In this document: in pieces, positions 7,600 through 38,855 of the stretch
Position numbering within the stretch: position 1 is the stretch's first letter
How the letters are laid out: each line of letters begins with the position of its first letter
Origin: a virus
Virus record (IMG/VR): IMGVR_UViG_3300025695_000006
Location: 16,331 to 80,330 of that record
Length of the DNA stretch: 64,000 nucleotides
Reading direction: 5' to 3' (one strand)
The notes under the pieces: model-generated
What the model was told of the DNA's origin: nothing
Seen by the model: only the letters and a program-made list of their open reading frames with translations
Databases searched by the model: none
Made by a program: the position numbers and the translations under genes

Positions 7600-10365
7600 T
7601 TATATGTCGTTAATTGGTGCTACACCAAAATCAACTACATAATTAGCACTACCAAATTCGGTTTTGGCCATTGTAGCCTCTATATATTTACCGAACATTT
7701 GTGGATCAGCGTCATAAAGTTGTTTAGCTGTTATATTTTTAATTCCGTTTGGTGTATCATGTTCTATTGTACCTGATACGTTTACGGTCATTGTTGACGT
7801 ACTGTTATTATTAGATGAATAGGTGTTTCTTGCCGCCATTTCGTCTATAAAAGCTACCGCATCGCCTGGGGAACCTTTTATTAACCTACCGTTTGAGTAG
7901 ACCATAGCATCCTTTACGGGTTCTTCAGGTATGTGTCGGAGGTCCGATAAAGATTCTGCGTTATAACCCTCTTTCGTTCTAAGTTTATCTCTTAGTTCCA
8001 TCTCGTATGAGTTGTTATCTGCGTTAGTTGAAACAAGCCCTGTTATGGCATCGGTCATTTGTGCCCCAGATAATTGTAGTGATATCCTAGCTTGTCTTTG
8101 CCAATCTTCGGTATCCGCACCTACTAAATAACCTACCCCAGACATAAGACTGTAAGCTGTACCTTCGAGCATATTTAAAACCCCAGAAGCAGTTCTTGTA
8201 AAAAAATTATTACTGCTTTCAGATTGACTTAAGCTTTTTGCTGCCTGGTCCATTAGTTTGTTGGCCGATTCTCTACCACCAGCCATTGCTACAGTTCCCT
8301 TTACTACGTTACCGTCGGAATCTCTGAACGATTGACCTATTAATTGTTGACCAGCGCTGTTTAGGGAATCACCAACTAAAGGTAGGTCTTTTAATGAGGT
8401 AAATATGTTTCCGAAGATGTATTGTACGTATGGTAGTATCGTGTTAGCCATGAACTTAATCATACTTTGCATCACATTTTGTATTTTTGTGAAGAACGGA
8501 CCTTCTCCATCCATCATTTTTTTTGAGCTGTCTAAGAATTCATTAAAATCATTTAGGAAGAAATTTAAACCTGTGGATAAAACACCTCCTGGTGCAAAAG
8601 CTGAATCTATAAAGGGTATCATCTGGTCAGATATTGCTGAACCTAAATCCTCTATCTTCTTTAAAGTACCTTCGTCTTCTAAGAATCTAGTTAAATTTGT
8701 GAATAATGGTGTTAATCCTATGGCGAATCTATCTAAAACAATAGCAAACCTTTGACTTAAATTTAATCTTTCTTGGGCGGCATTTTCGTTTGCTCTTCTA
8801 GCTGATAATATATTTTGTAATTGATCTTCGTTAGTTATACTGCTAACTAATTTACTAACACCGTTAGGCATTTTTATTTCATATTTCCCACCCTTGTTCA
8901 TTGTTATTAGGTTGGATAATGATTGTTTATCATCTTCACTAAAATTTATTAGTGAACCAGATGATTCACTTAAACTCATTAATTTGTCAGATGTTTTAGC
9001 CTGTTCTATAACAGCATTAGCTATTTGATCAAAATTTTGACCTAGAGCTTCAGCCTGCTCTTTTAATATCTGACGTTGGGCTGGTGGTATGATGAATTGA
9101 TTGTTTTTGTTCTTAACAGCTAAGTTTCTTGCACTATCTATTAATTTTTCAGCCATACCATCGGCATTGTTCATTGAGTCGTACATTAACGAGGCTGGGT
9201 CTCCAAATTGTTGGGCCATCTCACCACCTAATACTTGTATTTTTGCAGCCGCCTCAACAGCCTTTTCTGGACTGAAGAATGCGTCTTTAAACGATTTAAT
9301 TGATTCGGCTAGATTAAACCTTAAAGATTGTGATTTTGCTGCTAATTTAGTTAAATCCTCAACACTTCTACCAAAAGCACTACCAGTTAGATTTTTAACT
9401 ACGTCTGTAGTTGTTTTTAATAACTTAGTTTGGTTTATATTAAACTTAGCTGCTACATTCCTGCCTTTATCAGCCGTTTTCATTGTAGTTTTCATTGAAT
9501 AACCTAAGTTATCAAATTCACTAACCATTTCAGTAACACCTTTAACACCTAAGCCAGTACTGTACCCTAGTTTAACTATGTCTTCTATCTCACTATTACT
9601 AAATAAACGATTTTTACCAGTGTTATTACTGAACTCGTTTATGATGTTTGCTATGTCCTCTATTTTACCTCCGTAACCAGCTATATCGTTGTATAGTTGG
9701 GGCATGTTATTCATTAAACCCCTATACTCTTTGTTGGTTAACCCTATATCAGCAGAGAGGCCTCCAACGGCTGACTGCATGTTTAAGAACATTTTCCAGG
9801 CTTTCTCTATAGGGAATATGGTTTTAAATATAGCGGTACCTATTGATAGCGCCATTTTAAATATACCACTTAATGGACTTAATAGGTTTCCAGCTATATT
9901 ACCTATATTACTAACACCAGCCATAACACCACCTAGTTTACTACTAGCTTTCTTGGCCATTTTGTAATTAACGTCAGCTATTTCTTTTTCTACTTTAGCT
10001 TGTTTAATTTTATTAGATAGGTGTATTTTCTGTTCTTTAGATAGTTCTTTAGATAACTTTTTTTCAATATCACCCATTCTTTTGATGGCTTTATCTTGTT
10101 TAGCTAGATCTTTCTTAACCTTTTTTAGATTATTAGCATCATCTATTTTACCTTTAGCCCATCTTTTAATATTTTTACCTATAGTTTCAGATTTTAAATC
10201 CCATTTAAACGATTCCTCTTTTTTAGAAATAATAGCTTCATGCATGTTTAACATGCGGTTCATTTGCTCTTCTTGTTTAGCTCCGTCTATTATACCCTCT
10301 TTCCTAGCCTCGTTTAGAGCCTTTGAAGCGTTGAGTATGTCTTTCATGAAATCACCTTGTGCCAT
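7600..10365 (-). CDS. Tail tape measure protein (paralog 2)
   Basis: 921 aa, helical and A/G/L/K-rich with amphipathic hydrophobic segments; downstream of the tube/chaperone genes. Confidence 0.75.
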   Translation of the reverse strand: MAQGDFMKDILNASKALNEARKEGIIDGAKQEEQMNRMLNMHEAIISKKEESFKWDLKSETIGKNIKRWAKGKIDDANNLKKVKKDLAKQDKAIKRMGDIEKKLSKELSKEQKIHLSNKIKQAKVEKEIADVNYKMAKKASSKLGGVMAGVSNIGNIAGNLLSPLSGIFKMALSIGTAIFKTIFPIEKAWKMFLNMQSAVGGLSADIGLTNKEYRGLMNNMPQLYNDIAGYGGKIEDIANIINEFSNNTGKNRLFSNSEIEDIVKLGYSTGLGVKGVTEMVSEFDNLGYSMKTTMKTADKGRNVAAKFNINQTKLLKTTTDVVKNLTGSAFGRSVEDLTKLAAKSQSLRFNLAESIKSFKDAFFSPEKAVEAAAKIQVLGGEMAQQFGDPASLMYDSMNNADGMAEKLIDSARNLAVKNKNNQFIIPPAQRQILKEQAEALGQNFDQIANAVIEQAKTSDKLMSLSESSGSLINFSEDDKQSLSNLITMNKGGKYEIKMPNGVSKLVSSITNEDQLQNILSARRANENAAQERLNLSQRFAIVLDRFAIGLTPLFTNLTRFLEDEGTLKKIEDLGSAISDQMIPFIDSAFAPGGVLSTGLNFFLNDFNEFLDSSKKMMDGEGPFFTKIQNVMQSMIKFMANTILPYVQYIFGNIFTSLKDLPLVGDSLNSAGQQLIGQSFRDSDGNVVKGTVAMAGGRESANKLMDQAAKSLSQSESSNNFFTRTASGVLNMLEGTAYSLMSGVGYLVGADTEDWQRQARISLQLSGAQMTDAITGLVSTNADNNSYEMELRDKLRTKEGYNAESLSDLRHIPEEPVKDAMVYSNGRLIKGSPGDAVAFIDEMAARNTYSSNNNSTSTMTVNVSGTIEHDTPNGIKNITAKQLYDADPQMFGKYIEATMAKTEFGSANYVVDFGVAPINDI

Positions 10366-10427: not shown

Positions 10428-13136
10428 TTAACTTAAATTATTTATCATTTGTTGTAGTACCATTTTAGATGACATAATAACGGTGTCATCAACGGTTTTA
10501 CTGTCTACTGACAAGTTATTATATTTATTTAGTATCCTACCACTTAATACTATATTAACTTTTCTGTGTCCGCTAGCATTAAATCCGTTAGACAAACTGT
10601 TAATATAGTTTAGTGCGTCACCTTTTTTACCTTTATAGGCAGAGCCGTCTGGTCTAATGACAAGATCTTGGGCTGTTTCTACCGAATAATCCTTCTGCGA
10701 ATCTATACCAGCATTTACTGCGTCTAGAGCCATACTCCCTGCTGTACCTGCTCCTGGTAATGTGGATAATACACCAGAAGCTAAAGCCATACCTGCTTGA
10801 CCAAAGTTACCCTCTATAGCATAACTAAAGGTATCCCAAAGGCCTATAGCAAGACCTACTAATGGTATTCTTTTAGCTATATTTTTAGCACCCGTTTTTG
10901 CTAATGATTTACTAATTTTTTTACCAGAAGCTCTAACCCCTGCTCCGACCGCGTTAGATGTCAAGTCTGCCTCACCATATAATTCGTTGTGTTTTTCTAT
11001 AGTTTTTTTAAGTGTTTCTAAATTGTTTTCATAAAACTTGGTACCTTTTGATTTTTCTAGACCTTTTTTTTGTAGCTCTACACCACCCTTCATTAAACTT
11101 CTACTTTTAACCGCACCTTTCGTACCTTTCTCTATACCTATACCTAATTTCTGTATGGCTATACCTGAGTAATACTCTAAGGGTCCTACTAGGTATTTAA
11201 TTAAATTATCGGTTATAATATCTTTACTATCTATTAATATTTTTGAAAACCCTTTATCTGGGTCTTGCCATACCATGATTAAATCAGTTATGATAGAATT
11301 AAAAGTTTTTAGTATATCTCTTACCGTTGAACCGAGTTCGTTAGAAAAACCATCGTTAATGAATTTAATCATTTCTGATGATATAGCTTTAACTGTTTTG
11401 TCTAGGTTATTTATAGTATCGTTTTCTGTGAAGTGTCTGTTTAACGCAACGAATATTTTGGAGAACCCTATCATAAACCTATCCGATGCTATACCTATCC
11501 TTTCCGATAAGTTTTTCCTCATTAAGGCCGATTCTTTGTTTACCCTGTCCTGGTTTATGGTTTTTAATATACTTACATTACTAGGTATTTCTGATAATTT
11601 TTTTGTCATTCCGTTAGATAATCTCATACTGTAAGATCCGTCCTCGTTTAAAGTCATTAGATTTTTAAGTAATTCAGCTTTGTCTTCACCTATATTAAGT
11701 TCTAATATACCTCTATTCTCTAGAGCTTTTAGTTTATCTAGGTCCTTACCTTGTTCTATCGCAACATTAAATAATTCTTCTGAGTCGTGTCCTAATATAC
11801 TAGCCATATTTCTTATGATCTCACGATCTTCTGGAGCTATATCGAAACCGTTTTTACCTTTAAACGCTTTACCTTTTAATGATTCTATAAGGTCTGCGGT
11901 TAATTGTTCTGGTTCTAATATACTTTTAGCCATTAAAGTAAAGGGGTGCCCAAAATAAAACCCGAATTTACCACCTAGTAGTCTAGCTTTAGCTGCTATA
12001 TCTACAGCTATTTCTGGGTTTCTAAACGCATCAGCAAAATTTTTAACCGAATTACCCACGTCTAACCTCATTTTTTCGGCTTTTAATACTAAGCTGGTCA
12101 TTCCTTTAAGTCCTATACTTATACCAAAACCAGTTAACGCTACTGTTGTTTTATCTATACTTTTTAATACCTTTGATTGGTTTAGGTTTAAGCTCATAGC
12201 TTTACCTCTAACGTATTTAGTAAAATCTAAAGTTTCATCTAATGAATAACCTAAGTTGTTAAAATTACCAACTAGTTCAGCAGCACCTTCTGCACCTAGT
12301 GACGTACCTAAACCTAGTTCTAATATACTTTCGTACTCTTTACCAGTAAATAACCTATTTCTGTTAGTTACGTCACTAAATTTAGTAAAAACTTTACCTA
12401 TATCTTCCAGGCTACCACCAACATTTAAAACGTTTAGCATGATTGAAGGTAGGTCTTCTAACATTTTTTTTGACTCGGAGGCTATTAACCCAGAATCAGC
12501 AGCTATATTACCAGATAAACTTTGTATCTTTAAGAAAAAATTATAAGCTCCTTTAATAAGATTAAGTCTAGCCATACCTAATTTCTTAAGTATATCCTTA
12601 GTAACACCAAATATAGCTTTTGCGGCACCTACTATTGCTTCACCTGCCACCATAGCTATAATAACTAGTGGGTGACCTCCTTTTAATGATTTACCTATAC
12701 CACCAGCAGATTTAGCTGTCTCTTTAGCTATTTTTTCATCAACCTCGTTAAGTTCTTTTGTAGTCTCTAGCTCAGTCCTTCTTTTTTTTAATAATTTAGC
12801 TAAATCTTTATCACCTTTTTTATTAGCTTCTTTTTCTTCTTCTCTGTAATCGCTTATTTTTTTAGTTAACTCGGATTGCTCTTTTTTGTACCTATTTTTT
12901 TTCTCACGTTCTTTTGATAAATTTTTATAAACCTTTTTAAAGTATTTAAGTAAAGTCTCCTCTTTTAAGTCAAGTTTGTAATATTCTTTCCTTCTGTTAA
13001 CTGAATCTATAGCATCATCCAACGAATCTTTTAAAAAGTTGTTTCTAGTGTAATTACTTATACTACCTTTTTTATTTAGTTCGTTTATTCTCTCTTGAGC
13101 TTTTACAAAAGCTGATGTTATATCTCCTTGAGCCAT
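10428..13136 (-). CDS. Tail tape measure protein (paralog 1)
   Basis: 902 aa; same MAQGD start and colinear similarity to 7600..10365 (NRLF, LGYS, AFxxPExAVxxAAKxxxLGG); C-terminal RIPLVGLAIG amphipathic block. Confidence 0.75.
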   Translation of the reverse strand: MAQGDITSAFVKAQERINELNKKGSISNYTRNNFLKDSLDDAIDSVNRRKEYYKLDLKEETLLKYFKKVYKNLSKEREKKNRYKKEQSELTKKISDYREEEKEANKKGDKDLAKLLKKRRTELETTKELNEVDEKIAKETAKSAGGIGKSLKGGHPLVIIAMVAGEAIVGAAKAIFGVTKDILKKLGMARLNLIKGAYNFFLKIQSLSGNIAADSGLIASESKKMLEDLPSIMLNVLNVGGSLEDIGKVFTKFSDVTNRNRLFTGKEYESILELGLGTSLGAEGAAELVGNFNNLGYSLDETLDFTKYVRGKAMSLNLNQSKVLKSIDKTTVALTGFGISIGLKGMTSLVLKAEKMRLDVGNSVKNFADAFRNPEIAVDIAAKARLLGGKFGFYFGHPFTLMAKSILEPEQLTADLIESLKGKAFKGKNGFDIAPEDREIIRNMASILGHDSEELFNVAIEQGKDLDKLKALENRGILELNIGEDKAELLKNLMTLNEDGSYSMRLSNGMTKKLSEIPSNVSILKTINQDRVNKESALMRKNLSERIGIASDRFMIGFSKIFVALNRHFTENDTINNLDKTVKAISSEMIKFINDGFSNELGSTVRDILKTFNSIITDLIMVWQDPDKGFSKILIDSKDIITDNLIKYLVGPLEYYSGIAIQKLGIGIEKGTKGAVKSRSLMKGGVELQKKGLEKSKGTKFYENNLETLKKTIEKHNELYGEADLTSNAVGAGVRASGKKISKSLAKTGAKNIAKRIPLVGLAIGLWDTFSYAIEGNFGQAGMALASGVLSTLPGAGTAGSMALDAVNAGIDSQKDYSVETAQDLVIRPDGSAYKGKKGDALNYINSLSNGFNASGHRKVNIVLSGRILNKYNNLSVDSKTVDDTVIMSSKMVLQQMINNLS

Positions 13137-16308: not shown

Positions 16309-19300
16309 TTAGATGTTATCAAAAGATACGTTCTGAGGAGTAACTGTGAACTCAAGCTCTATGAACTCTAACGTTGGTGTGGGTTTGATAAATATCTTAC
16401 CTCTCAACGTATTTCTATCTCCATCTTCAATATCCATTTCAACTGAAACTCTAAAGTCTGTTAAACCTCTTTCTTTTCTTATGTTATCCAATATAGGGTT
16501 AACTAATGATAAGAATTGATTTCTAACCGTAGTATCATTCGGATCAAATAATAATCTTTTAGATACACTCATTATTAATCTTCTAGCTTGTAATAACAAT
16601 CTTCTAATGTTAAGTCTATCAAGAGCACTTGATTTAATCTGTAAGTTTCTGTTACCCCAGATAACAACTCCAACGTCTGAATATGTTGCTAATGGGTTAA
16701 TTCTACCTGGGTAAAGTACATCTCTAGACTCTTGATCTAGCGCTATACGAGCTCTATTACATTTAACCAGACCTCTGTTATAACCAGCTGTCGCAAACCA
16801 TGGGAAAGAAACGTTATCAGTGTAAGCTAAATTCCTAACTACTTCAGCGGTAGGTGGTATAAATAAATTAGCGTTATTAGTCGTGTCGTTAATTTGAATC
16901 CATGGGTAATATAGAGCAGTGTAACTAGAATCTATTTCAGTACCTTCAAGTTCATCAACAATATCCTCAGCGTAATACCAGTTTTCTGAATCAGAAGGGT
17001 TACTGTTATTCAATAACTTTATATCTGGTAAAGTAGGTAAGTAGATAGTGTCTAATCTTTTCTCTTCAACAATCTCGATAGCATCTCTTACCAAATCAGT
17101 GTTATTCAACACATCAATACCAGGGGTAGTTAATATGTTTATAGCTATTTCCTCAGGATTCTGCATACTTCTCAATCCGTATAGAGTAGAGTAGTAATCA
17201 GAAGTACCAAACAATTCAGCGTACTCCACATTTGTGAATGTATCGAAAGAACTATTAACGAAACCAGTTCTACCTATTTTATAATCATCTGTATTAGTTC
17301 TATTAACTCTATAAGCATCCCAACCATCAAAACCACCTGAAAATAAACAAGTGAATTTTCTAGTTCTCATACTGTTATAAGGGTGGGTTGTAGTACCATC
17401 AACGATAGTAGCATCGTTAAAAGTCCCAACACCTACAGCAAATACCTCTTCATTTGTCATAGAGTCAATAATAGCCGAAGCGTTAGTATCCATATGGAAA
17501 CCTTTAGTTTTTGTTATATAATCATCACCAGTATTGTAAGCGTTATCACCTAAAATACTTTTCTTACCTTTGAATAGTAATAAATCTTTATCATAACCAA
17601 ATTGACTAGAAAAGCCTAGGTAGTGTTTACGAACAACATCTCCAGAAGAAATTGTAGCGTTATCAAAAGGTGGGTCAAAAACAACATCACCAGGTGAATA
17701 ATACTCTAACTTGTAAGGTACTTCAGGTACAGAAAGAGAACCTAAGTCATCAACTCTAAATTCATAACCTTCGAAACCAGAAGCAACACCATCGCTAGGT
17801 GCGTTATCTGCCATTTCTAAAATAACATAACTACTCTTTAAAGGGTATTTATTATCGATAGTACCTATTTTTCTACCTATGTAATTATCTAAAGACTCGT
17901 CCATTGTACAATCAACAAATTTCTCTAGAATAACAGGAGACTTATCACTATCATTAAAAGATCTAATATATAAATCGAAAGTTCTTTTAGATAGATCTAC
18001 ATTAGCGATAGATAATTTTATTTCATAATTAGCGTTAGTACCGTCAGATATAGAAATTAATCTAAACATTCTTTGTGGTAAACCACCTCGTAATTCAGAT
18101 ACAATAAAAGGTGTTACTGGAGATTGAAATTGGAATTTATAATGATCCCAGCTATTCTCAGAAACTAACTCAGTGTGTAAACCTTTTATCTTACCGTTTA
18201 ATCTACCCATTTTTAAAGAGTTATCATAAACTTCTTCAACAAATATCATAGCGTCACCATCATCAGGTGTAGAACCGATAACCTTCTTAATGTAATTCGC
18301 TTTAGTTTGATCTAAAGATACAGTATAAGAAAAATCGCTACCAGTAGGGTTACCCGTAGTACCAGTTAACTCGAAAGACAAGAAAGGGTTATTAACCATA
18401 TCGTCCTGAGCATTCATACTTAAAGTAGCTGCGTTATATTTAAGTACATCAGAAACATACCCACCTCTACTTCTAATAGTAGCTACAGTTTTATTATGAC
18501 CTTCATTATAAGGTGAAGCACTTAAAACAGTTGTATATAATTCTAATTCACCAGCTATAGTAGTAATACCACTAGGTGTGAAACTATGACAAAATAAACC
18601 AAAACTAGTACCCACATATTCCTCGTTAGAAGAATTATAAACTAATTCGTTATTAAGTATATACGAATCTCTATCACTTACAGGTACAGACGAAGGTAAT
18701 TCGTAAGCATCTATATAAGTAGGTATTACACCATTAACAGTATTAGCATCATTATCTATATCTGTCTCTAATTGAGAGGTTAATAACCCCCAATACATAG
18801 AGTGTTTTTTATCATAAAAACGTGCGTTCTGATAACCACCTATTGTAGTGAAATAACTTTCAAAAGTGGTGGTGAATTCAGTCGCATCAACACCAACAAT
18901 ATCAGATATGTAAGTTAATAAATCTGTATTACCTGAAACACTAGTCGTATAAAAAGAGTTAGTAGCGGTATCAAATTCAAAAGCAATTGATTGTTTAGTG
19001 ACACCAGTAGTTGACAAAGTTGATTCATCAACAGCCCCCATAGTCTTAATACTCCATGCCATACCAGCCTCGTACCCAGACAAACCTAACACTCTAGTTA
19101 CATACAATTGGTTTGATTGAGTTAAATACTGTTTAGCAATATAAGGTAACTCATATTTAACTATTTGTGTGTTTTTAAATTTTTGTGGGTCAGTTCCCCC
19201 AAAAGTTGTTTGAAACTCGTCAAAGTTTCTAATAAACATCGGTTGGAACGCAGGTCCCTTCAACGTTTCACCTACACTACCTAGTGTAGTAACACCAACA

Positions 19301-19371
19301 GTTTCTGTTGTGAAGGATAAGTCTTTTTCGGTTGTGTAAACACCTGGAGATGCATATACTTTATTTGCCAT
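16309..19371 (-). CDS. Contractile tail sheath protein (T4 gp18-like)
   Basis: N-terminal SPGVYTTEKDLS..GETLKGPAFQP; C-terminal PWFATAGYNRG, RDVLYPGRINP, VIWGNRNLQ, ALDRLNIRRLL. Confidence 0.95.
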   Translation of the reverse strand: MANKVYASPGVYTTEKDLSFTTETVGVTTLGSVGETLKGPAFQPMFIRNFDEFQTTFGGTDPQKFKNTQIVKYELPYIAKQYLTQSNQLYVTRVLGLSGYEAGMAWSIKTMGAVDESTLSTTGVTKQSIAFEFDTATNSFYTTSVSGNTDLLTYISDIVGVDATEFTTTFESYFTTIGGYQNARFYDKKHSMYWGLLTSQLETDIDNDANTVNGVIPTYIDAYELPSSVPVSDRDSYILNNELVYNSSNEEYVGTSFGLFCHSFTPSGITTIAGELELYTTVLSASPYNEGHNKTVATIRSRGGYVSDVLKYNAATLSMNAQDDMVNNPFLSFELTGTTGNPTGSDFSYTVSLDQTKANYIKKVIGSTPDDGDAMIFVEEVYDNSLKMGRLNGKIKGLHTELVSENSWDHYKFQFQSPVTPFIVSELRGGLPQRMFRLISISDGTNANYEIKLSIANVDLSKRTFDLYIRSFNDSDKSPVILEKFVDCTMDESLDNYIGRKIGTIDNKYPLKSSYVILEMADNAPSDGVASGFEGYEFRVDDLGSLSVPEVPYKLEYYSPGDVVFDPPFDNATISSGDVVRKHYLGFSSQFGYDKDLLLFKGKKSILGDNAYNTGDDYITKTKGFHMDTNASAIIDSMTNEEVFAVGVGTFNDATIVDGTTTHPYNSMRTRKFTCLFSGGFDGWDAYRVNRTNTDDYKIGRTGFVNSSFDTFTNVEYAELFGTSDYYSTLYGLRSMQNPEEIAINILTTPGIDVLNNTDLVRDAIEIVEEKRLDTIYLPTLPDIKLLNNSNPSDSENWYYAEDIVDELEGTEIDSSYTALYYPWIQINDTTNNANLFIPPTAEVVRNLAYTDNVSFPWFATAGYNRGLVKCNRARIALDQESRDVLYPGRINPLATYSDVGVVIWGNRNLQIKSSALDRLNIRRLLLQARRLIMSVSKRLLFDPNDTTVRNQFLSLVNPILDNIRKERGLTDFRVSVEMDIEDGDRNTLRGKIFIKPTPTLEFIELEFTVTPQNVSFDNI

Positions 19372-27063: not shown

Positions 27064-30000
27064 ATGGCTGGATACAAGATACCTTTAGATCAAATAGAAA
27101 AGTTTTTAAATGGACATGATGATGAGAAGTATATTGTTAATATAGAATACGACAAAGAAACAAATCTTATTCACAAAATAAAACAGCATCCAGAAAAAGG
27201 CCTCTATACCGAAAAGGAGCCTCTACTCGCTTTTATGTGGATTAAAAACCTTAACAAAGTTAAGGAATTAATAAACTTCTACGGTAATAGCGATGCTAGG
27301 ATAAGATCTGCTAGAGAAAAATTCGGTATAGAAATAAAATCGTTAGAACACAGTAATCACCCTAAATTAATTGAAGGTTATAGGTATTTACTAACCTGTA
27401 CTCAGGGACACCAAAGAATGTTACAGTTCTTTAAAGAAGGTGGTTTATATGTTTATGATAAAAGAAATGATATAAGATCTAATTTCTTAATGATATCACC
27501 AGTAGAACAATATTTAATACATACTGGTAAACGACTTTTTAAGGGTTTCGATGAATATTCTGAAATACACAAACTAGTATTCGATTTAGAAACAACTGGT
27601 TTAGACCCTAGTTATAGTAGGATATTTATGATTGGTATGTACACAAATAAAGGTGTGGAAGAAATAATACCAATCGAAGACAATGACGAGTCAGAAAGAC
27701 AAGGTATCATAAAATTCTTTGATAAAATAAACGAAATAAAACCAGCTATTATAGCGGGATACAATAGTGCTAACTTTGACTGGCCATTTTTCTTTAAAAG
27801 ATGTGAAATACTAGGGTTAGATATAGAAAAAATAGCAATCACCCTTAAGAAAGGTGAGTTAATCAATAATAGATCAGGAATGCTTAAACTAGGTAGTGAA
27901 GTCGAACATTTCGAACAAACTAATATGTTTGGTTATAGTATTATAGACATTATACACTCAGCCAGAAGAGCTCAAGCTATCGATTCCAGTATGAAGTCAG
28001 CAGGTCTTAAATACGTTTGTAAATACAATAAAATAAATAAGAAAAATCGTGTTTATATCACTGGTGATAAAATAGGTGATACGTGGTATTCAAAAGATAC
28101 TTTTTATTTTAATGACAGGAACGGTACCTACAACAAAGCTAAAGGTTCCATAGATTTTATCGATAACATAACAAGAGAGTACGTACAATCAAACCCAGAA
28201 GAGATATTTGTTTATAGTGAGAATGAGTCTTTAGAAGGTTTTGGTGAACAATCTAAAGAGATGCGTGGCGAAAGCAACGCAATACCTATCCTTACTAAGA
28301 AAAAACCAGGTAATACCGATGATTCATTCTTTAACGACCTAGAATTAGAGGATAATAAAGTTAAAATAAATAAGGGTATCAAGGAGATAATCAGATTTAT
28401 TGATGAGGGTAAGAAAGTTAATTTCCCTAAAAGTGGTATAGGTACAGATTCTTCTCAACTACAATTAAGAGCACCTAATACCTACAACTTTTTAATACAA
28501 ACGCTAAAAGCGTTGCGTTCTTACATAGAAACAATAAAACCTGTTGATGGTAAATATATTGTTGAGAGATATCTTATTGATGATTTATGGGAAACCATGG
28601 AAGTAGATGAGGTTTACAACCAGTCTTCATTTTTATTAGCTAAGCTAGTACCAACAACTTACCAAAGAGTATCCACAATGGGTACCGCTGGGTTATGGAA
28701 GCTTTTAATGATGACCTATTCCTTCGAGAATGGTTTAGCCGTACCAACCCCAGAAGAGAGACGTAGTTTTACTGGTGGGTTATCTAGACTTTTTAAGGTC
28801 GGTTATTCTGAAGAATTAAGGAAAATGGATTACGACTCATTATACCCAGCCATACAATTAGCTCACGATATATTCCCTAGTTCTGATGTTAATGGGGCTA
28901 TGAAATCCATGTTAAAATACTTTCACACAGAGAGGTTTAAAGCTAAAAACCTAGCCAGTAAGTATAAAAAAGAGGGTAACTATCAATTAGCGGATAAATA
29001 CAAAAGAAAACAACTACCACTTAAGATATTTATAAACTCAATGTTCGGTGCCCTGGGTGCTCCTCTAGCCTTTCAATGGGCTGAGATAGATGTTAGTGAG
29101 CAAATAACATGTACAGCTAGGCAATACCTTAGATTATTAGTTAAATTCTTTATAAAGAAAGGTTACGACCCTTCAGTATTAGATACCGATGGTGTAAACT
29201 TCACAGCGCCAGAGAGTGGTGAAGATTTTATTTATATAGGTAAAGGTTTAAGTAACAGCGTTGAAAAAGGCAGAGAGTACACTGGTGTAGACGCTACGGT
29301 TGCGGAATTCAACGACTTATATATGCGTAAAGAAATGGGGTTGAGTTTAGATGGGGTATGGCCATCAACTATAAACCTATCTAGAAAAAATTATGCTCTC
29401 CTAGAATATGATGGTAGTATTAGTTTAACTGGTAACAGTATTAAATCCAAAAAACTACCTATGTATATAGAAGAATTCCTTAAAAAAGGGATTAAAATGT
29501 TGTTAGAGAATAAGGGTTATGAATTTGTTAGTTATTATCATGAATATGCTGAAAAGATATATAACAAAGAAATACCATTAGCTATGATAGCAACTAAATC
29601 AAGAGTTAAGAAGAGTATTGAGGATTATAAAAATAGAGGCACTGATAAAAATGGTAGAGACCTACCTAAACAGGCTCATATGGAATTAGCGGTTATAAAT
29701 AACTTAGATGTTAACTTAGGTGATACAATATATTATGTAAATAATGGTAAGGTAAAGTCTCACGGTGATTCGCAATATAATAAAGAAGGTGAAATGTATG
29801 CTTCTTTAGTACCTATGGATATAATAGAAAACAAACCTAATGAGATAGGTGAATATAACGTACCTAAATATCTAGACGCTTTTAACAAGAAAATAAAACC
29901 ATTATTAGTTTCGTACTCTTTAAATGTTAGGGGTGATATATTGATAAATAAACCAGAAGACAAGAAAATGTTCCTAAGGTCGGAATTAAAATTGTTGAAT

Positions 30001-30165
30001 AATCAACCTAACGATATAGGTGACCAAGATACCTTATTAGAGTTTTACACCCCATCACCAACAGAAAAAGAGTTCTGGAATAAACTATCATATGAACCTG
30101 ATTTTTGGTTTAATGATGATATAATATTTAAAATACCTGGTTTCGAAGAAGAAATTCCAGTGTGA
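27064..30165 (+). CDS. Family B DNA polymerase with 3'-5' exonuclease and a ~125-aa insertion
   Basis: ExoI FDLETTG, ExoII GYNSANFD, ExoIII YLIDD; polymerase motifs DYDSLYP, KIFINSMFG and DTDG. Confidence 0.95.
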   Translation: MAGYKIPLDQIEKFLNGHDDEKYIVNIEYDKETNLIHKIKQHPEKGLYTEKEPLLAFMWIKNLNKVKELINFYGNSDARIRSAREKFGIEIKSLEHSNHPKLIEGYRYLLTCTQGHQRMLQFFKEGGLYVYDKRNDIRSNFLMISPVEQYLIHTGKRLFKGFDEYSEIHKLVFDLETTGLDPSYSRIFMIGMYTNKGVEEIIPIEDNDESERQGIIKFFDKINEIKPAIIAGYNSANFDWPFFFKRCEILGLDIEKIAITLKKGELINNRSGMLKLGSEVEHFEQTNMFGYSIIDIIHSARRAQAIDSSMKSAGLKYVCKYNKINKKNRVYITGDKIGDTWYSKDTFYFNDRNGTYNKAKGSIDFIDNITREYVQSNPEEIFVYSENESLEGFGEQSKEMRGESNAIPILTKKKPGNTDDSFFNDLELEDNKVKINKGIKEIIRFIDEGKKVNFPKSGIGTDSSQLQLRAPNTYNFLIQTLKALRSYIETIKPVDGKYIVERYLIDDLWETMEVDEVYNQSSFLLAKLVPTTYQRVSTMGTAGLWKLLMMTYSFENGLAVPTPEERRSFTGGLSRLFKVGYSEELRKMDYDSLYPAIQLAHDIFPSSDVNGAMKSMLKYFHTERFKAKNLASKYKKEGNYQLADKYKRKQLPLKIFINSMFGALGAPLAFQWAEIDVSEQITCTARQYLRLLVKFFIKKGYDPSVLDTDGVNFTAPESGEDFIYIGKGLSNSVEKGREYTGVDATVAEFNDLYMRKEMGLSLDGVWPSTINLSRKNYALLEYDGSISLTGNSIKSKKLPMYIEEFLKKGIKMLLENKGYEFVSYYHEYAEKIYNKEIPLAMIATKSRVKKSIEDYKNRGTDKNGRDLPKQAHMELAVINNLDVNLGDTIYYVNNGKVKSHGDSQYNKEGEMYASLVPMDIIENKPNEIGEYNVPKYLDAFNKKIKPLLVSYSLNVRGDILINKPEDKKMFLRSELKLLNNQPNDIGDQDTLLEFYTPSPTEKEFWNKLSYEPDFWFNDDIIFKIPGFEEEIPV

Positions 30166-31565: not shown

Positions 31566-32114
31566 ATGCTTATAATTGAAAATATCGGTGATGATAAGTT
31601 AGATGTTATTAGATACGCAATTGAAAATAAATACGAGGTTTCGTTCTGGTACAGAGGTGTTAAAGTTAGTGACCCTGACAATAAAAAGTACACTAAACAA
31701 AACTATAGACGCGTACAACCAGTAGCACTAGGTAAAAGTAAGGGTACTGGTAAATGGATGCTTAGGGCCTACCAAACTACAGGTGTGACTAACACAGAAA
31801 ACCAAAAATGGAAAACTTTCATTGTTGATGAAATTAAAGATAATACGATTAAAGTGATGTATGATAACACGGGTAAGAATCTAAAAACTTTCGAACCTAA
31901 AAGCGATTACAAAACGGATGGATCAGACAAAAAGATGGCTAATGATAAGTCTATAAATTATTTAGATGTTAATAAACCAGCTGGACCTAAAGATCCCAAT
32001 TATAAAGAACCAGAAATGGTAAATAAAAATGAAGAAGGAGAAAATGTCGATTTAACTATTAATGAATCTTACAGCTCTGGTTTTCTAAAATGGATATATA
32101 GTACATATGAATAG
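31566..32114 (+). CDS. Stand-alone WYL-domain protein
   Basis: IRYAIENKYEVSFWY..RRVQPVALG..WMLRAY..WKTFIVDEI matches the WYL pattern (AI..r..l.f.Y..R.v.P..L..WYL.a..R.F..drI). Confidence 0.75.
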   Translation: MLIIENIGDDKLDVIRYAIENKYEVSFWYRGVKVSDPDNKKYTKQNYRRVQPVALGKSKGTGKWMLRAYQTTGVTNTENQKWKTFIVDEIKDNTIKVMYDNTGKNLKTFEPKSDYKTDGSDKKMANDKSINYLDVNKPAGPKDPNYKEPEMVNKNEEGENVDLTINESYSSGFLKWIYSTYE

Positions 32115-33970: not shown

Positions 33971-34717
33971 ATGAATAAGATTAGAATTCTAGTTATAGGT
34001 GAGAGTTGCACTGACGAGTTTATTTATTGTAAATCGGATAGATTATCACCAGAAGCCCCAGTACCAGTTTTAAACCCAATAAAAACTGTTAAAAATAGAG
34101 GTATGTCTGGTAACACAACAACAAATTTAAAGTCTATATTACCAAACTCTCAGATTACTTCAGTGATACAAACTGAAAATATAACTAAAACACGTTATAT
34201 CGAGAATAAATCTAACCATATGTTCTTAAGGGTAGATAAAGGTGAGGACAGTTTAACACCTATAGAATGGACTAACGATATCATAGAATCTATAAAACAG
34301 GCTGATATAGTCGTTGTAAGTGATTACAACAAAGGTTTTTTAAAGGATTCTGATGTAAAAAGAATAGGAGAGTTAAGTGAGTTATCTATATTAGATTCTA
34401 AGCGTAAATTAAATAATGATATTATAAATAGTTATACGTTTATAAAATTGAATGAATCAGAATATGGTAACAATAAACATTTAACACATAACGGTATTAT
34501 AGTAACACTAGGATCTAAAGGTGCTAGACATGGTAGTAAATTATACCCATCACTAAACCCTCAAGAAACCATAGACGTAAGCGGTGCTGGTGATACTTTT
34601 ACCGCTTCATTCATAACTACCTACTATATAACCTCAGATATTTCAGAAGCTATAATAAAAGCTAATGAAAACGCTTCCAACGTCGTAAGTAGAAGAGGGG
34701 TAGTAACACCCAAATAA
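33971..34717 (+). CDS. PfkB-family heptose-7-phosphate kinase (RfaE/HldE domain I-like)
   Basis: ILVIGE..D..RLSPEAPVPV, SDYNKG and DVSGAGDTF motifs. Confidence 0.85.
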   Translation: MNKIRILVIGESCTDEFIYCKSDRLSPEAPVPVLNPIKTVKNRGMSGNTTTNLKSILPNSQITSVIQTENITKTRYIENKSNHMFLRVDKGEDSLTPIEWTNDIIESIKQADIVVVSDYNKGFLKDSDVKRIGELSELSILDSKRKLNNDIINSYTFIKLNESEYGNNKHLTHNGIIVTLGSKGARHGSKLYPSLNPQETIDVSGAGDTFTASFITTYYITSDISEAIIKANENASNVVSRRGVVTPK

Positions 34718-34779
34718 ATAAACAGATTTACTTTAATTTATGCATTAAATTTACTATTATTACACAAATAATAAATTTA

Positions 34780-36003
34780 ATGAGTAAGATAAACATACTA
34801 GTTAACCCTAATGATAGGTCTGGATCTGGTAAATACAGGTGTATAGACCCACACGTAACCCTACAAAATAACCACAGTGAAGAATATTTTGTAGAGATAA
34901 ACCAAAATATAGATTTTAACGACACTAACTACCTAAAAAAGTTTAATATATTCTTTTTTAATAGGGTACCTGGGGGTAATTACCAACAAGCCGAAGAGAT
35001 TTTCGCTAAGATAAAATCTTTAGGTGGTAAAATAGTTCTTGATTTAGATGACTACTGGAGATTGGATAAATCTCACGGTATGTATTTACAGGCTAAAGAA
35101 GGTGGATACAGTAGAACTATTATCAATCTAGTTAAAAGTGCTGATATGGTAACTGTTACAACAGAAATACTAAGAGATGAAGTATTTAAGTACAACAAAA
35201 ACTGTTTCGTATTACCAAACGCGATTAACCCAAAAGAACAACAATTTACACCAAAACCTACAGAATCTGATAGATTAAGGTTCGGTTGGCTTGGCGGGTC
35301 TTCCCATATTAAAGATATCGAATTAATTAAAGATATAGCTCAGACCACAGCAAAACGAAAAGATGAAATACAATTTGTTTTATGCGGTTTCGATAAAAGA
35401 GGTAAGGTTAAAATGTTCAACCCAGAAACTAAAAAGTGGATGGAAAGAGATATGCAACCACTAGAAACTACATGGTTCATGTATGAGGTGTTTATAACTA
35501 ACAATTTTAGATTATTAGAGGGTGATACCGAGTATCTAAGTCATCTAATGAAGTTTGACCCAGAAGTTAAATTTGATGACTTAAACAAACCATACAGAAG
35601 GATATGGACAAAAAATATTAATAACTATGCTACAGGTTATAACGAGTTCGATGTAGCATTAGCACCTTTGTTAGATAACGAATTTAATAAATACAAGTCT
35701 CAGTTAAAAGTTATTGAGGCTGGTTTCCACAAAAAACCTATCATTGCACAAAACTACGGTCCGTATACAATAGATTTAATATCAGCGGTAAACAAAGGTG
35801 GTACTATTAACAGTGATGGTAACTCTTTATTAGTGGAAACTAGTAAAAACCATAAACAATGGGGTAAACACGTTAAAATGTTAATGGATAACCCAAATAT
35901 GGTAACGGACTTAGGTGAAAAGTTATACGAAACAGTTAAAGATCGTTACGATATAAATAACGTAACAAAATATAGAGACGAATTATACAAATCATTAGTT
36001 TAG
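34780..36003 (+). CDS. GT-B fold glycosyltransferase (GT4-like)
   Basis: VLDLDDYW, ADMVTVTT, VLPNAI, FGWLGGSSH, DVALAPL..FN.YKSQLKVIEAG. Confidence 0.85.
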   Translation: MSKINILVNPNDRSGSGKYRCIDPHVTLQNNHSEEYFVEINQNIDFNDTNYLKKFNIFFFNRVPGGNYQQAEEIFAKIKSLGGKIVLDLDDYWRLDKSHGMYLQAKEGGYSRTIINLVKSADMVTVTTEILRDEVFKYNKNCFVLPNAINPKEQQFTPKPTESDRLRFGWLGGSSHIKDIELIKDIAQTTAKRKDEIQFVLCGFDKRGKVKMFNPETKKWMERDMQPLETTWFMYEVFITNNFRLLEGDTEYLSHLMKFDPEVKFDDLNKPYRRIWTKNINNYATGYNEFDVALAPLLDNEFNKYKSQLKVIEAGFHKKPIIAQNYGPYTIDLISAVNKGGTINSDGNSLLVETSKNHKQWGKHVKMLMDNPNMVTDLGEKLYETVKDRYDINNVTKYRDELYKSLV

Positions 36004-36004
36004 A

Positions 36005-36589
36005 ATGGAAAATCATTTAGATAATATAAACATAAACGAACTTCTTAGTGAGGATGTTAAGAAAGACTTAGAAAGTGTGTTAGGTCAAACACAAGATTTA
36101 ATGGGTGACTGGGATTACGACCAAGAAACCATGAGTATAAAATTAAAAGTATCATTTATAAATAAATCTGACAACCCTGACCCATCATACGAAAAACACG
36201 GCGACAGTGGTTTTGATATTAGAGCCAATATAGATGAACCGATCGAACTAAAACCAGGTAATAGAACATTAATAAAAACTGGTTTATATTTTCAGATACC
36301 GTTAGGTTATGAATTACAGGTTAGGTCTAGAAGTGGTTTAGCCCTTAAAAACGGTGTGATGGTATTAAATAGTCCTGGTACAGTAGACTCTGGTTACAGA
36401 GGCGAAGTAGGGGTTATACTTTATAATACAGATAATTCAGAATCATTTGCCGTAAATAATGGTGATAGAATAGCCCAAGGAGTTATAGCCGCCGTACAAA
36501 CAATGGATAGGACTAAACTTATAAAAAAAGATAAACTATCTTCATCAGAAAGAGGTGAAGGCGGGTTTGGTTCAACAGGAGTTAAATAA
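36005..36589 (+). CDS. dut: Trimeric dUTPase with N-terminal extension
   Basis: SGFDI, RSRSGLA, GTVDSGYRGE, GDRIAQ and RGEGGFGSTG (motifs I-V). Confidence 0.95.
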   Translation: MENHLDNININELLSEDVKKDLESVLGQTQDLMGDWDYDQETMSIKLKVSFINKSDNPDPSYEKHGDSGFDIRANIDEPIELKPGNRTLIKTGLYFQIPLGYELQVRSRSGLALKNGVMVLNSPGTVDSGYRGEVGVILYNTDNSESFAVNNGDRIAQGVIAAVQTMDRTKLIKKDKLSSSERGEGGFGSTGVK

Positions 36590-36593
36590 TGTT

Positions 36594-36896
36594 ATGGAAG
36601 AATTTAAAGAACAAATAAAGGCTTACAAAACTATCACACCAGATGTACTAGATAGAGTCGAGTACAAAACAGTTTGGTCTGGTAAAAGGATAGAGGTCGG
36701 AGATAAAGTATTGTACGCATTTGTTTATCCACCAGGATCGGACGAGTATAAGTTAGCCACTTTCCTCCAAAGAGAGCTAAATGAGGTTAGTTTAAAATTT
36801 AGTTTCATACAGATGTTTAATGGGATCATACCTGTATTAAAATTTAAAGACGATGATACGGTACGAGAATTAATAGAAGAAAAAGATGAAGACTAA
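36594..36896 (+). CDS. Hypothetical protein
   Basis: Likely start is the ATG at 36594 (MEEFKEQ), just after the dut stop. Confidence 0.65.
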   Translation: MEEFKEQIKAYKTITPDVLDRVEYKTVWSGKRIEVGDKVLYAFVYPPGSDEYKLATFLQRELNEVSLKFSFIQMFNGIIPVLKFKDDDTVRELIEEKDED

Positions 36897-38325
36897 CATT
36901 AAGATCAGTGTCGTTTTCTCAACCAGAGCTATAGACGATTCATTTGTTGAACACGTAAAAAAAACATGTCTACATAAAGGTGTTGAAGTATTACCGTACC
37001 TAAATAACGGAGAATACTCATTAACTGAAATATACAACAAAGGGTTAAAAGAAGCGTCTAGTGATATAGTGGTTTTTTGTCATGATGATATAATTTTTGA
37101 AACAAAAAATTGGGGTAATAAGTTAATAAAACATTTTGATAAAAATGAAGAATATTCCATACTAGGTGTTGCTGGCACGAATCACATGATCAGTGGTATG
37201 TGGTGGGAGATAAGGAACGCTATGCACGGAACCGTTAAACACACCGACGGTAATAAAGTATGGGAGAATAAATTCTCTAAAAGTTACGGTAATGAACTAA
37301 AAGAGATGGTTGTTCTGGATGGTTTATTTTTAGCGGTAGATAGGACTAGGTTAATAAGTAAATTCGATGAATCGTATAAAGGGTTCCATTTCTATGACAT
37401 ATCATTTTGTTTTGATAATCATATAAATGGGGCTAAAATAGGTTTAATGTCTAATATTAAATTGATACATAAATCGGTTGGTGGTACTAACAAACAATGG
37501 GAGGAGAATAAATTAATCTTTGAGACCAGAAATTCTAAAAACATACCAATAAACCTAAATAAAAACACCTCACATATAGTATTCGATAAATCATTACCAA
37601 AAGTAGACTTACACGTACTATGTTGGAACGAAGAAAAGATAATCCCTTCATTTTTAAAACACTACGAAAACTGGGTTGATAGAATCATAGTTTACGATAA
37701 CAAATCTAATGACAATAGTGTTAAGATATTAACTGAACACCCTAAAGTAACTATCATTAGTTACGATACTGGTGGTGAAATACGCGACGATGCCTACCTA
37801 CAGATAAAAAATAATTTATGGAAAAATTCGATAGGTAGAGCGGACATTGTAATAGTTTGTGATATGGACGAGTTTCTATATACCGAAAACATAGGAACTT
37901 TAATACGAAACTTTAACGATAGTAGTGCTACTATAATAAAACCAGTGGGTTATGATATGATAATAGAGGATTTCGACATCACTAAAAGTGTTGATTTATT
38001 AAGTGACGTTAAATACGGTATAAGACACAATCATTTTGACAAACTATGTATGTTCAAGCCAAGTGAGATAAAGGAGATTAATTATAATTTCGGCTGTCAT
38101 GTCGCTAACCCCTCTGGTAATGTAAAGTATTTCGATGGTGATGTTAAACTATTACATTATAAAAAAATAGGGTTAAAATACTTTCTAGATAAAATGGGTA
38201 GTTACCATAAAAGGTTAAGTAAGTTTAACAGGGATAGATCCCTGGGTTACCAATACGATTTCGATAGAGAGAAACATATCACAGACTTCACTAAAGATTC
38301 TCATAAAAGTAAAAAAGTTATATGA
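36886..38325 (+). CDS. Two-domain GT-A (GT2-like) glycosyltransferase
   Basis: Domain 1 YNKGL..VVFCHDDI..DGLFL..FHFYD; domain 2 CWNEEKII..YDNKSND..VIVCDMDEF..LLHYK. Confidence 0.85.
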   Translation: MKTNIKISVVFSTRAIDDSFVEHVKKTCLHKGVEVLPYLNNGEYSLTEIYNKGLKEASSDIVVFCHDDIIFETKNWGNKLIKHFDKNEEYSILGVAGTNHMISGMWWEIRNAMHGTVKHTDGNKVWENKFSKSYGNELKEMVVLDGLFLAVDRTRLISKFDESYKGFHFYDISFCFDNHINGAKIGLMSNIKLIHKSVGGTNKQWEENKLIFETRNSKNIPINLNKNTSHIVFDKSLPKVDLHVLCWNEEKIIPSFLKHYENWVDRIIVYDNKSNDNSVKILTEHPKVTIISYDTGGEIRDDAYLQIKNNLWKNSIGRADIVIVCDMDEFLYTENIGTLIRNFNDSSATIIKPVGYDMIIEDFDITKSVDLLSDVKYGIRHNHFDKLCMFKPSEIKEINYNFGCHVANPSGNVKYFDGDVKLLHYKKIGLKYFLDKMGSYHKRLSKFNRDRSLGYQYDFDREKHITDFTKDSHKSKKVI

Positions 38326-38855
38326 AAGAAGTTTTATTGATAGGTAATGGTCCGTCTTGTTTAGATAAAGAATTGGGTGAACTAATAGACTCTCATGAAA
38401 CAGTTATTAGGTTCAATGACTTCGAGACAAAAGGTTACGAAAAACACGTTGGTACCAAAACAGACGTATGGGTCAAGACTAAAATGTCATCTAAACATAT
38501 AACCAAAAACTTCAAAAGTAAATTCTACGTTTACCCAAACATCATAAGATGTACCGAAGAAGAGAAGAAGATTTTAGTTAATGATGGGTTTAATGTGATC
38601 CCTGTAAAATTCTACAACAAGGTAAATAAATTGTTAGACGCTGGTAACCTATGGGCCACTACTGGATTAGTGATGATATACTATTTTATAGAAAAAGGTT
38701 ATAATGTCAAAATACATGGTTTTGATTTCTTTGAGAATGGAGTTCATTACTATAAAGACGATAATAAAATGATAGGTCATAGACCAGACTTAGAAAAGGC
38801 TTTGGTCAACAATCTCATTAATAAAGGTGAAGTTAAATTATTATATAATGGATAA
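38322..38855 (+). CDS. GT29 sialyltransferase-like protein 1
   Basis: Sialylmotif L (IGNGPS..G.LID..VIRFN..GY..HVGTKT), S (TTG..V.IHGFDFF), III (HYY) and VS (HRPDLE). Confidence 0.8.
   Translation: MKEVLLIGNGPSCLDKELGELIDSHETVIRFNDFETKGYEKHVGTKTDVWVKTKMSSKHITKNFKSKFYVYPNIIRCTEEEKKILVNDGFNVIPVKFYNKVNKLLDAGNLWATTGLVMIYYFIEKGYNVKIHGFDFFENGVHYYKDDNKMIGHRPDLEKALVNNLINKGEVKLLYNG

Follow-up and report, generated by a model that had tools for sequence, protein, structure and literature searches.

The window studied here, i.e. the whole 64,000-nucleotide stretch covering positions 16,331 to 80,330 of the viral record IMGVR_UViG_3300025695_000006 (IMG/VR), carries at 27064-30165, on the plus strand, an open reading frame (ORF) which is translated into a family B DNA polymerase (PolB) of 1033 amino acids, and the exonuclease (proofreading) domain of this polymerase contains a whole additional domain belonging to the Pfam family DUF7831 (PF25176).

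The DUF7831 match obtained in the Pfam scan of the polymerase covers residues 365-479 (28156-28500) and profile positions 3-117 of 118, with an E value of 5.6e-31 and a score of 107.3 bits versus a cut-off of 27; the insert segment scored 112 bits when it was scanned alone. This match is far beyond chance. The insert also matches phrog_2072, a family with no known function. When the 120 best homologues of the polymerase were aligned, the region corresponding to residues 340-515 was found to be 176 amino acids long in the window enzyme versus exactly 60 in 36 polymerases lacking the insert (902-1067 amino acids), which makes it a discrete insertion of about 116 amino acids. It sits between the ExoII and ExoIII motifs and ends about 11 residues ahead of the latter, and its junctions read ...NGTY/NKAKG... 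and ...SYIETIKP/VDGKY. An extra, lineage-specific module without intein termini had been proposed at this place in an earlier interpretation of the same DNA (the sequence-only reading), and these points were borne out by the PF25176 match, by the 36 relatives without the insert, and, in the case of the intein, by the absence of any Pfam intein match and by the junctions, which have neither a C, S or T at the start nor HN followed by C, S or T at the end. Since no splicing motifs were found, an intein or mobile-element origin of the insert was rejected. The exact 10-mer TACCTACAAC occurs twice around the domain (28125-28134 and 28479-28488, i.e. 354 nucleotides or 118 codons apart), but as a flanking direct repeat this sole candidate was attributed to chance, since such a repeat was present in 41% of the codon shuffles.

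The polymerase carries the Pfam domains DNA_pol_B_exo1 (PF03104), DNA_pol_B (PF00136), and RNase_H_2, and resembles the phrog_262 DNA polymerase (E 4e-47). The ExoI-III motifs and motifs A, B, and C are all six present in the translation, which places the enzyme in family B, and to judge from these motifs, both the 3'-5' exonuclease and the polymerase sites are intact. The nearest solved relatives are the archaeal PolBs; the nearest polymerases of cultured phages, those of Salinibacter phages, show only 25% identity. The features of the gene, read from the translation unless otherwise stated, are as follows:

27580-27600, plus strand: ExoI, FDLETTG, residues 173-179, aligned to the archaeal PolB ExoI
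27760-27789, plus strand: ExoII, YNSANFDWPF, residues 233-242, aligned to NGDSFDFPY of Pfu (Pfu residues 208-218)
28132-28539, plus strand: inserted segment, residues about 357-492, between ...NGTY and VDGKY..., from the alignment of 120 homologues
28156-28500, plus strand: DUF7831 (PF25176) core, residues 365-479, from the Pfam match (E 5.6e-31), modeled by AlphaFold2 with a predicted local distance difference test score (pLDDT) of 96.9
28570-28596, plus strand: ExoIII, YLIDDLWET, residues 503-511, aligned to Pfu residues 308-318
28828-29196, plus strand: motifs A, B, and C jointly, aligned to the archaeal PolB motifs; motif A is DYDSLYPA (residues 589-596), motif B KIFINSMFGALG (residues 654-665), and motif C LDTDGV (residues 706-711)

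Signature residues and selection in the polymerase clade

The consensus of 61 stand-alone DUF7831 members is ITRxxxxxNPxxxFVFGDNxxRxGxGGQAKEMRGEPNAIGIxTKxxP...FFxD...VVxPxxGIGTGLAxLxxRAP, and the consensus given in the sequence-only reading for a stand-alone phage family agrees with it nearly exactly. The signature was defined as the 20 residues conserved in at least 90% of the DUF7831 members (P0003 numbering): F25, G26, D27, N28, G33, G35, G36, Q37, A38, R42, N46, G49, K53, P56, D66, G99, G101, L107, A111, and P112. The window copy retains 14 of them, F25, G26, D27, G36, A38, and G49 being lost, and it has kept K53 and all five residues that are invariant in the family (N28, G33, R42, N46, and P112). 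Two loops, the first following strand 2 and the second strand 4, read GxGGQA and GIGTG in the family, and GFGEQS and GIGTD here:

28213-28254, plus strand: first signature loop, eroded, YSENESLEGFGEQS versus the consensus FGDNxxRxGxGGQA, after model strand E21-28; substitutions F25Y, G26S, D27E, G36E, and A38S
28279-28308, plus strand: strand and TK motif, AIPILTKKKP versus the consensus AIGIxTKxxP; N46, K53, and P56 kept, G49P
28426-28461, plus strand: second signature loop, PKSGIGTDSSQL versus the consensus PxxGIGTGLAxL, after model strand E92-96; G99 and G101 retained, third Gly of GIGTG replaced by Asp

The substitutions already pointed out from the sequence alone (FGDN to YSEN, GGQA to GEQS, and GIGTG to GIGTD) are real, and IGI to IPI can be added to them. 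An insert of at least 90 amino acids is present in 82 of the 120 best homologues. All 20 signature residues are intact in 58 of these 82 inserts, which are carried by polymerases 45-77% identical to that of the window, and 18-19 of them in six further polymerase inserts, whereas the window copy and its five nearest relatives (84-88% identical over the whole protein) have kept 12-15. The suggestion that the window copy may be non-catalytic was thus upheld by the comparison. The members of the window subclade share F25Y, G26S, G36E, and A38S, while G49, K53, and P56 vary within it. A second eroded subclade (P0013, P0014, P0015, and P0022) shows a different pattern (YDEN, GGQQS), and in eight polymerases the insert shows heavy decay or partial deletion. 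P0051 (1392 amino acids), a member of the polymerase clade, carries a true intein elsewhere in the protein (Pfam Intein_splicing and LAGLIDADG_3); its DUF7831 insert is heavily eroded, with 8 of the 20 signature residues.

Selection was assessed by the Nei-Gojobori method by comparing the window with L111 and L112, the DNA of these relatives being taken from IMG/VR. In the window subclade, the ratio between the nonsynonymous and synonymous substitution rates (dN/dS) is 0.07-0.10 in the insert versus 0.04-0.06 in the remaining gene, these values being rough since dS is saturated (1.4-2.4). When the dN of the insert is divided by that of the remaining gene, values of 1.9-2.6 are obtained in this subclade, whereas canonical polymerase pairs have a median of 1.2 (0.8-2.1 at similar divergence); consistently with this, the insert is 73-75% identical to those of the nearest relatives. 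The domain is still strongly constrained as a protein, with a moderately relaxed or shifted constraint; because dN/dS is about 0.1, the fold can be said to be still under selection.

In a FastTree phylogeny of the polymerases without the insert, in which the rooting was arbitrary and the supports were left aside, the insert-less enzymes do not form one clade, and two of them (P0084 and P0106) adjoin an enzyme carrying an intact insert; this arrangement is tentative. The picture is that of an accessory module which is strictly conserved in most lineages but has undergone repeated loss or degradation, as is typically seen with functions that depend on the host and not with core parts of the replisome.

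Predicted fold and genomic company of DUF7831

The window insert and the canonical insert of the relative L114 were modeled with AlphaFold2, giving pLDDT values of 96.9 and 97.6, respectively. The order of the elements is the same in both models (beta1, alpha1, beta2, loop, alpha2, beta3, a long alpha3, beta4, loop, alpha4/5), and DUF7831 is, according to these models, a compact four-strand alpha/beta domain. The conserved residues are predicted to lie in the loops following beta2, beta3, and beta4, i.e. along the C-terminal edge of the sheet, which is the usual site of ligand binding in alpha/beta enzymes. The two models were compared with 48,161 PDB representatives using VIA-align. The DarG macrodomain ranked first in the case of both models, and the leaders common to both also include the Bacteroides protein 2afc, Poa1p (6lfq), and TARG1 (2lgr). 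Macrodomains account for 14-17 of the top 20 structural matches, the same four leading with both models, and no SLOG, LOG, or TIR structures were present among the top 50 with either. The assignment of the DarG/TARG1/Poa1p type of macrodomain as the nearest solved fold of DUF7831 is moderately supported by these predicted structures.

When DUF7831 and DarG are compared by eye, collinear motifs can be recognized (N....G.GG.A and N..G..GKGIA, IPTK and FPTK, PxxGIGTG and PPLGCGNGG), DarG having about 33 extra residues in this alignment; this collinearity is taken as a lead and not as evidence. The nearest clusters in the ESM Atlas, which consist of unnamed phage proteins, the "A1S_2505 family" cluster, and one cluster with 10-11% Macro members (score 0.80), are likewise leads only.

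An exhaustive HMMER search yielded 1392 DUF7831 clusters (50% identity, E up to 1e-3). Many of the members are stand-alone proteins of 120-200 amino acids and many others are part of proteins of 2000-6800 amino acids; they occur in phages, giant viruses, loci resembling conjugative elements, and giant injected proteins. BFVD contains members from phages of Caulobacter and Rhizobium, from giant viruses resembling mimivirus, and from giant crAss-like phage proteins, and stand-alone proteins were also found in Roseobacter phages and in bacteria. A word-based search for longer relatives of the window insert retrieved only its own polymerase clade.

Outside the polymerase clade, the recurrent fusion partners of DUF7831 are DUF488-N3a, which is by far the commonest, YpsA-type SLOG, DUF4326, and NADAR, along with PIF1/RecD-like helicases and, in one protein, MuF and Zeta-toxin. 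The protein P0130, for example, is organized as NADAR (2978-3113), DUF7831 (3145-3259), DUF4326 (3510-3597), and helicase (PIF1), P0166 as NADAR, DUF7831, and helicase, and P0157 as YpsA, DUF7831, and DUF488-N3a; a DUF7831-DUF4326 fusion was seen as well. Papers on DUF488 were found to contain no statement on its function. SLOG, Macro, NADAR, and DUF4326 have been described as phage domains processing ADP-ribose, which are repeatedly fused together, often in injected polyvalent proteins (Iyer et al., 2022; PMC9503650). In architectures of this kind, DUF7831 takes the place of Macro. The association of the family with ADP-ribose, which had been proposed from the sequence, is in line with the company of NADAR, YpsA-SLOG, and DUF4326.

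Stand-alone DUF7831 genes of bacteria were found in Pyrinomonadaceae, Hymenobacter, Methylobacterium, and others, and they adjoin SSB in 16 loci and RNase H in eight. Several genomes of Pyrinomonadaceae and other Acidobacteria (loci L018-L076) carry multiple DUF7831 genes: the small ones adjoin SSB, an uncharacterized protein of 430-590 amino acids, and RNase H, in loci that look like a replication or leading-region module of a mobile element, and other copies form the N-terminus of proteins of about 1540 amino acids bearing DUF488-N3a. In the Rhizobium phage RHph_TM61, the DUF7831 gene lies among exonuclease and recombination genes. Taken together, these neighbors and partners, which are the strongest functional clue available, point to a connection of the family with DNA and with the chemistry of ADP-ribose.

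The source record of the window is 80,330 bp long, with a CheckV completeness of 27%. Since related records of 150-206 kb are estimated to be 52-69% complete, the size of the phage genome is probably about 300 kb. No Macro, NADAR, DUF4326, or second DUF7831 domain was found in the 80-kb record, i.e. in about 27% of the genome. Five partial records of related phages each have the polymerase insert as their sole DUF7831 copy and lack a canonical Macro domain; a stand-alone NADAR is present in one of the five. In the record G310, which holds L128 and has a polymerase with a fully canonical insert, a stand-alone NADAR of 163 amino acids is encoded at C1:3925-4362 on the minus strand (E 7e-52), and this phage would thus hold two candidate ADP-ribose-processing modules.

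As far as gene content goes, the surroundings of the polymerase are consistent with a large, uncultured myophage: the window also encodes a tail sheath, an SNF2 helicase, a dUTPase/dCTP-deaminase-like protein, and glycosyltransferases. The tail sheath (16309-19371, minus strand) is unusually long (1020 amino acids), and only about 220 residues at its C-terminus are covered by the matches with sheath domains. Three large ORFs on the minus strand, at 3-7559 (at least 2519 amino acids, continuing beyond the edge of the window), 7600-10365 (921 amino acids), and 10428-13136 (902 amino acids), gave no credible Pfam match, the sole hit being a sub-threshold DUF7146; because they are located upstream of the tail sheath gene, they may encode giant virion or tail proteins. 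A cluster located just downstream of the polymerase (33971-38855, plus strand) encodes a PfkB-like kinase fragment, the dUTPase/dCTP-deaminase-like protein, a two-domain family-2 glycosyltransferase, and a GT29 sialyltransferase-like protein, and might act on nucleotides or DNA as a sugar-modification module, or else be a glycan module. A protein of 182 amino acids encoded at 31566-32114 (plus strand) shows a weak match, just under the cut-off, with the WYL domain (E 4e-4); WYL domains are ligand sensors in conflict systems.

Possible functions of the insert and comparison with known systems

DarT toxins, which ADP-ribosylate DNA, have recently been recognized as an anti-phage defense; the known responses of phages are free NADAR or macrodomain enzymes, small DarT inhibitors, and point mutations in the phage polymerase. 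Phage NADARs have been found to strip ADP-ribose from DNA and to defeat DarTG1 (Johannesman et al., 2025; PMC11825919). The same paper recounts how the phage SECphi18 escapes DarTG2 via mutations in its DNA polymerase; replication is stalled by ADP-ribosylation of the DNA, and escape is known to occur through the polymerase (PMC11825919). Because of these two facts, an anti-DarT role of the insert is, by analogy, an attractive idea.

The explanation we favor, to which we assign a probability of roughly 0.5, is that the insert was ancestrally an ADP-ribose module working at the replication fork and that the window copy is an eroded remnant, either non-catalytic or altered. A whole DUF7831 domain occupies a surface region of the exonuclease domain of a replicative polymerase, just before the ExoIII helix; the family, judged by its fusion partners, would belong to a phage toolkit processing ADP-ribose and NAD-derived adducts, and the canonical polymerase inserts would most likely bind or remove an ADP-ribose-type adduct on DNA at the fork. 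In the window subclade, the erosion of the signature loops (G26S, D27E, G36E, A38S, G49P, and the third Gly of GIGTG to Asp), taken together with the strong purifying selection, suggests that the copy is most likely a folded remnant with absent or altered catalytic activity, which probably persists as a scaffold or binder rather than as a functional eraser. It may have been kept because of its structural integration in the polymerase, or because of some residual binding of a ligand or partner. A bolder version, in which a hitherto unrecognized, minimized branch of the macrodomains erasing DNA ADP-ribose was built into the proofreading domain of the replicase of a large clade of phages of about 300 kb, where it cleared DarT-type lesions from their own template and has since been repeatedly lost or inactivated, the host threat being presumably gone in the present case, is a doubtful one, although possible.

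Several results weigh against the favored explanation. Foldseek searches of the PDB with the two models gave no match (best E 0.2 and 0.08), the Macro family is absent from the hmmscan matches of 62 members at E values up to 10, and a sequence-profile search of the PDB with the family alignment retrieved no macro chain but only chance matches. The DUF7831 profile was also compared, using hhalign, with the macrodomains of the DarG proteins encoded in 20 DarT-DarG operons, which came from genomes belonging to the Hymenobacter phylum, DarT being present in 23 of 301 genomes: the probability was 1.9% (0.3% with the controls, i.e. the DarG C-terminal domain and DarT), and in the global mode there was no match. 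A sliding deletion of 33 residues in DarG raised the probability to 42% at most, in two registers, which is not significant. DUF7831 has four to five strands where macrodomains have six to seven; no publication mentioning DUF7831 or its polymerase fusion, and no reported ligand or activity, was found in the literature; the saturation of dS makes the dN/dS values rough; and the conservation of the invariant residues and K53 under strong selection makes a retained or altered activity possible. With Pfam and NCBIfam at loose thresholds, the 62 members matched neither Macro nor SLOG nor any other family, and a lone match of one member with an ADP-ribose-binding protein model (0.086) was not meaningful. 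No significant sequence or profile similarity of DUF7831 to the Macro superfamily (PF01661 and relatives) was thus found. Of the macro-like fold claimed in the sequence-only reading, what stands is that the nearest solved fold is a macrodomain, with DarG first; the Foldseek and profile searches did not back it.

DUF7831 might alternatively be unrelated to ADP-ribose, being a small module of the Rossmann-like, P-loop-like, or phosphatase-like type, with some other nucleotide or a DNA end as its substrate, such as a 3'-blocking group, a modified nucleotide, or a signaling nucleotide, in which case its resemblance to macrodomains would reflect a common alpha/beta arrangement. This is a serious though minority possibility: the predominance of macrodomains among the top 20 structural matches, with the same four leading both models, and the absence of SLOG, LOG, and TIR structures from the top 50 argue against it, as do the recurrent fusions with NADAR, YpsA-SLOG, and DUF4326, which are the partners in the ADP-ribose network described in PMC9503650.

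The idea put forward in the sequence-only reading, namely that the window insert is itself an active eraser of DarT-type ADP-ribose tethered to the polymerase at the fork, can draw on the DarG-like fold, the NADAR fusions, the blocking of replication by DNA ADP-ribosylation with the polymerase as a known escape locus (PMC11825919), and the five invariant residues and K53 kept at a dN/dS of about 0.1. It seems unlikely, however, given that six of the 20 signature residues have changed, including a Gly-to-Glu substitution in the Gly-rich loop and GDN to SEN, that sister lineages retain 20 out of 20, that the evolutionary rate of the insert, taken relative to the remaining gene, is about double that of canonical inserts, and that no link between DarT and the window phage was found. 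A module which was always non-enzymatic and served for docking or as an architectural element, e.g. for SSB, a clamp, or a helicase, is quite improbable: its location on the exonuclease domain of the replicase, the adjacency of the family to SSB genes in bacteria, and the erosion of the signature tolerated under purifying selection would fit, but the 20 loop residues (Gly-rich loops, N, R, K, and D) do not vary between 58 polymerases and the unrelated copies that stand alone or belong to polyvalent proteins, which points to a small-molecule or catalytic site instead of a lineage-specific protein interface, and the replisome can dispense with the insert, since several polymerase lineages have lost it entirely or carry it in a heavily decayed state.

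A repair-type domain within a replicase would constitute a new counter-defense architecture and provide a family B polymerase with a novel type of accessory activity, as well as giving a first functional handle on DUF7831, with its approximately 1400 sequence clusters. The polymerase clade provides a natural experiment, since fully conserved, partly eroded (as in the window), heavily decayed, and deleted versions occur in similar enzymes; the value of the window alone is lower, as its copy is probably not the active form. The DUF7831-PolB architecture is already visible in precomputed Pfam domain tables. Free anti-DarT enzymes of phages are already known, and the polymerase-embedded form would be new if DUF7831 is an ADP-ribose eraser.

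The macrodomains of DarG (of the DarG2 type), TARG1, and Poa1p are ADP-ribosyl glycohydrolases or phosphatases; DUF7831 falls short of their length by about 35 residues, in addition to having fewer strands (4-5 versus 6-7) and no significant sequence-profile similarity. The insert differs from the DarG of DarTG2 systems in that it consists of 116-125 amino acids within a polymerase, is flanked by the PolB exonuclease domain, and has neither a DarT-binding C-terminal domain nor a darT neighbor; Pfam scans of the polymerase and 18 other window ORFs showed no DarT or DarT-binding domain, darT (PF14487) not having been sought in the 80-kb record, and the true DarT-DarG pairs fetched for comparison differ in appearance from the window insert. 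Like other PolB insertions (inteins and extra domains), it lies in frame within the catalytic subunit, but unlike inteins, it has no splicing motifs or homing endonuclease and remains part of the mature protein, with residues that most lineages conserve as well as the polymerase itself. With the stand-alone DUF7831/PHROG 2072 proteins it shares a full-length match, the same order of secondary structures, and the same five invariant residues, from which it differs in being embedded in a polymerase and in the substitution of six of the 20 signature residues. If DUF7831 is an ADP-ribose eraser, its counter-defense logic would be the same as that of the NADAR AdfN (T4 30.3) and the DarG2-like antitoxin of a chimallivirus, which are free proteins of proven activity (PMC11825919; PMC13309987); the window insert is a domain of a replicase, belongs to another family, is eroded, and has a putative function. 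In several giant phage proteins, DUF7831 is directly fused to NADAR, the family to which AdfN belongs.

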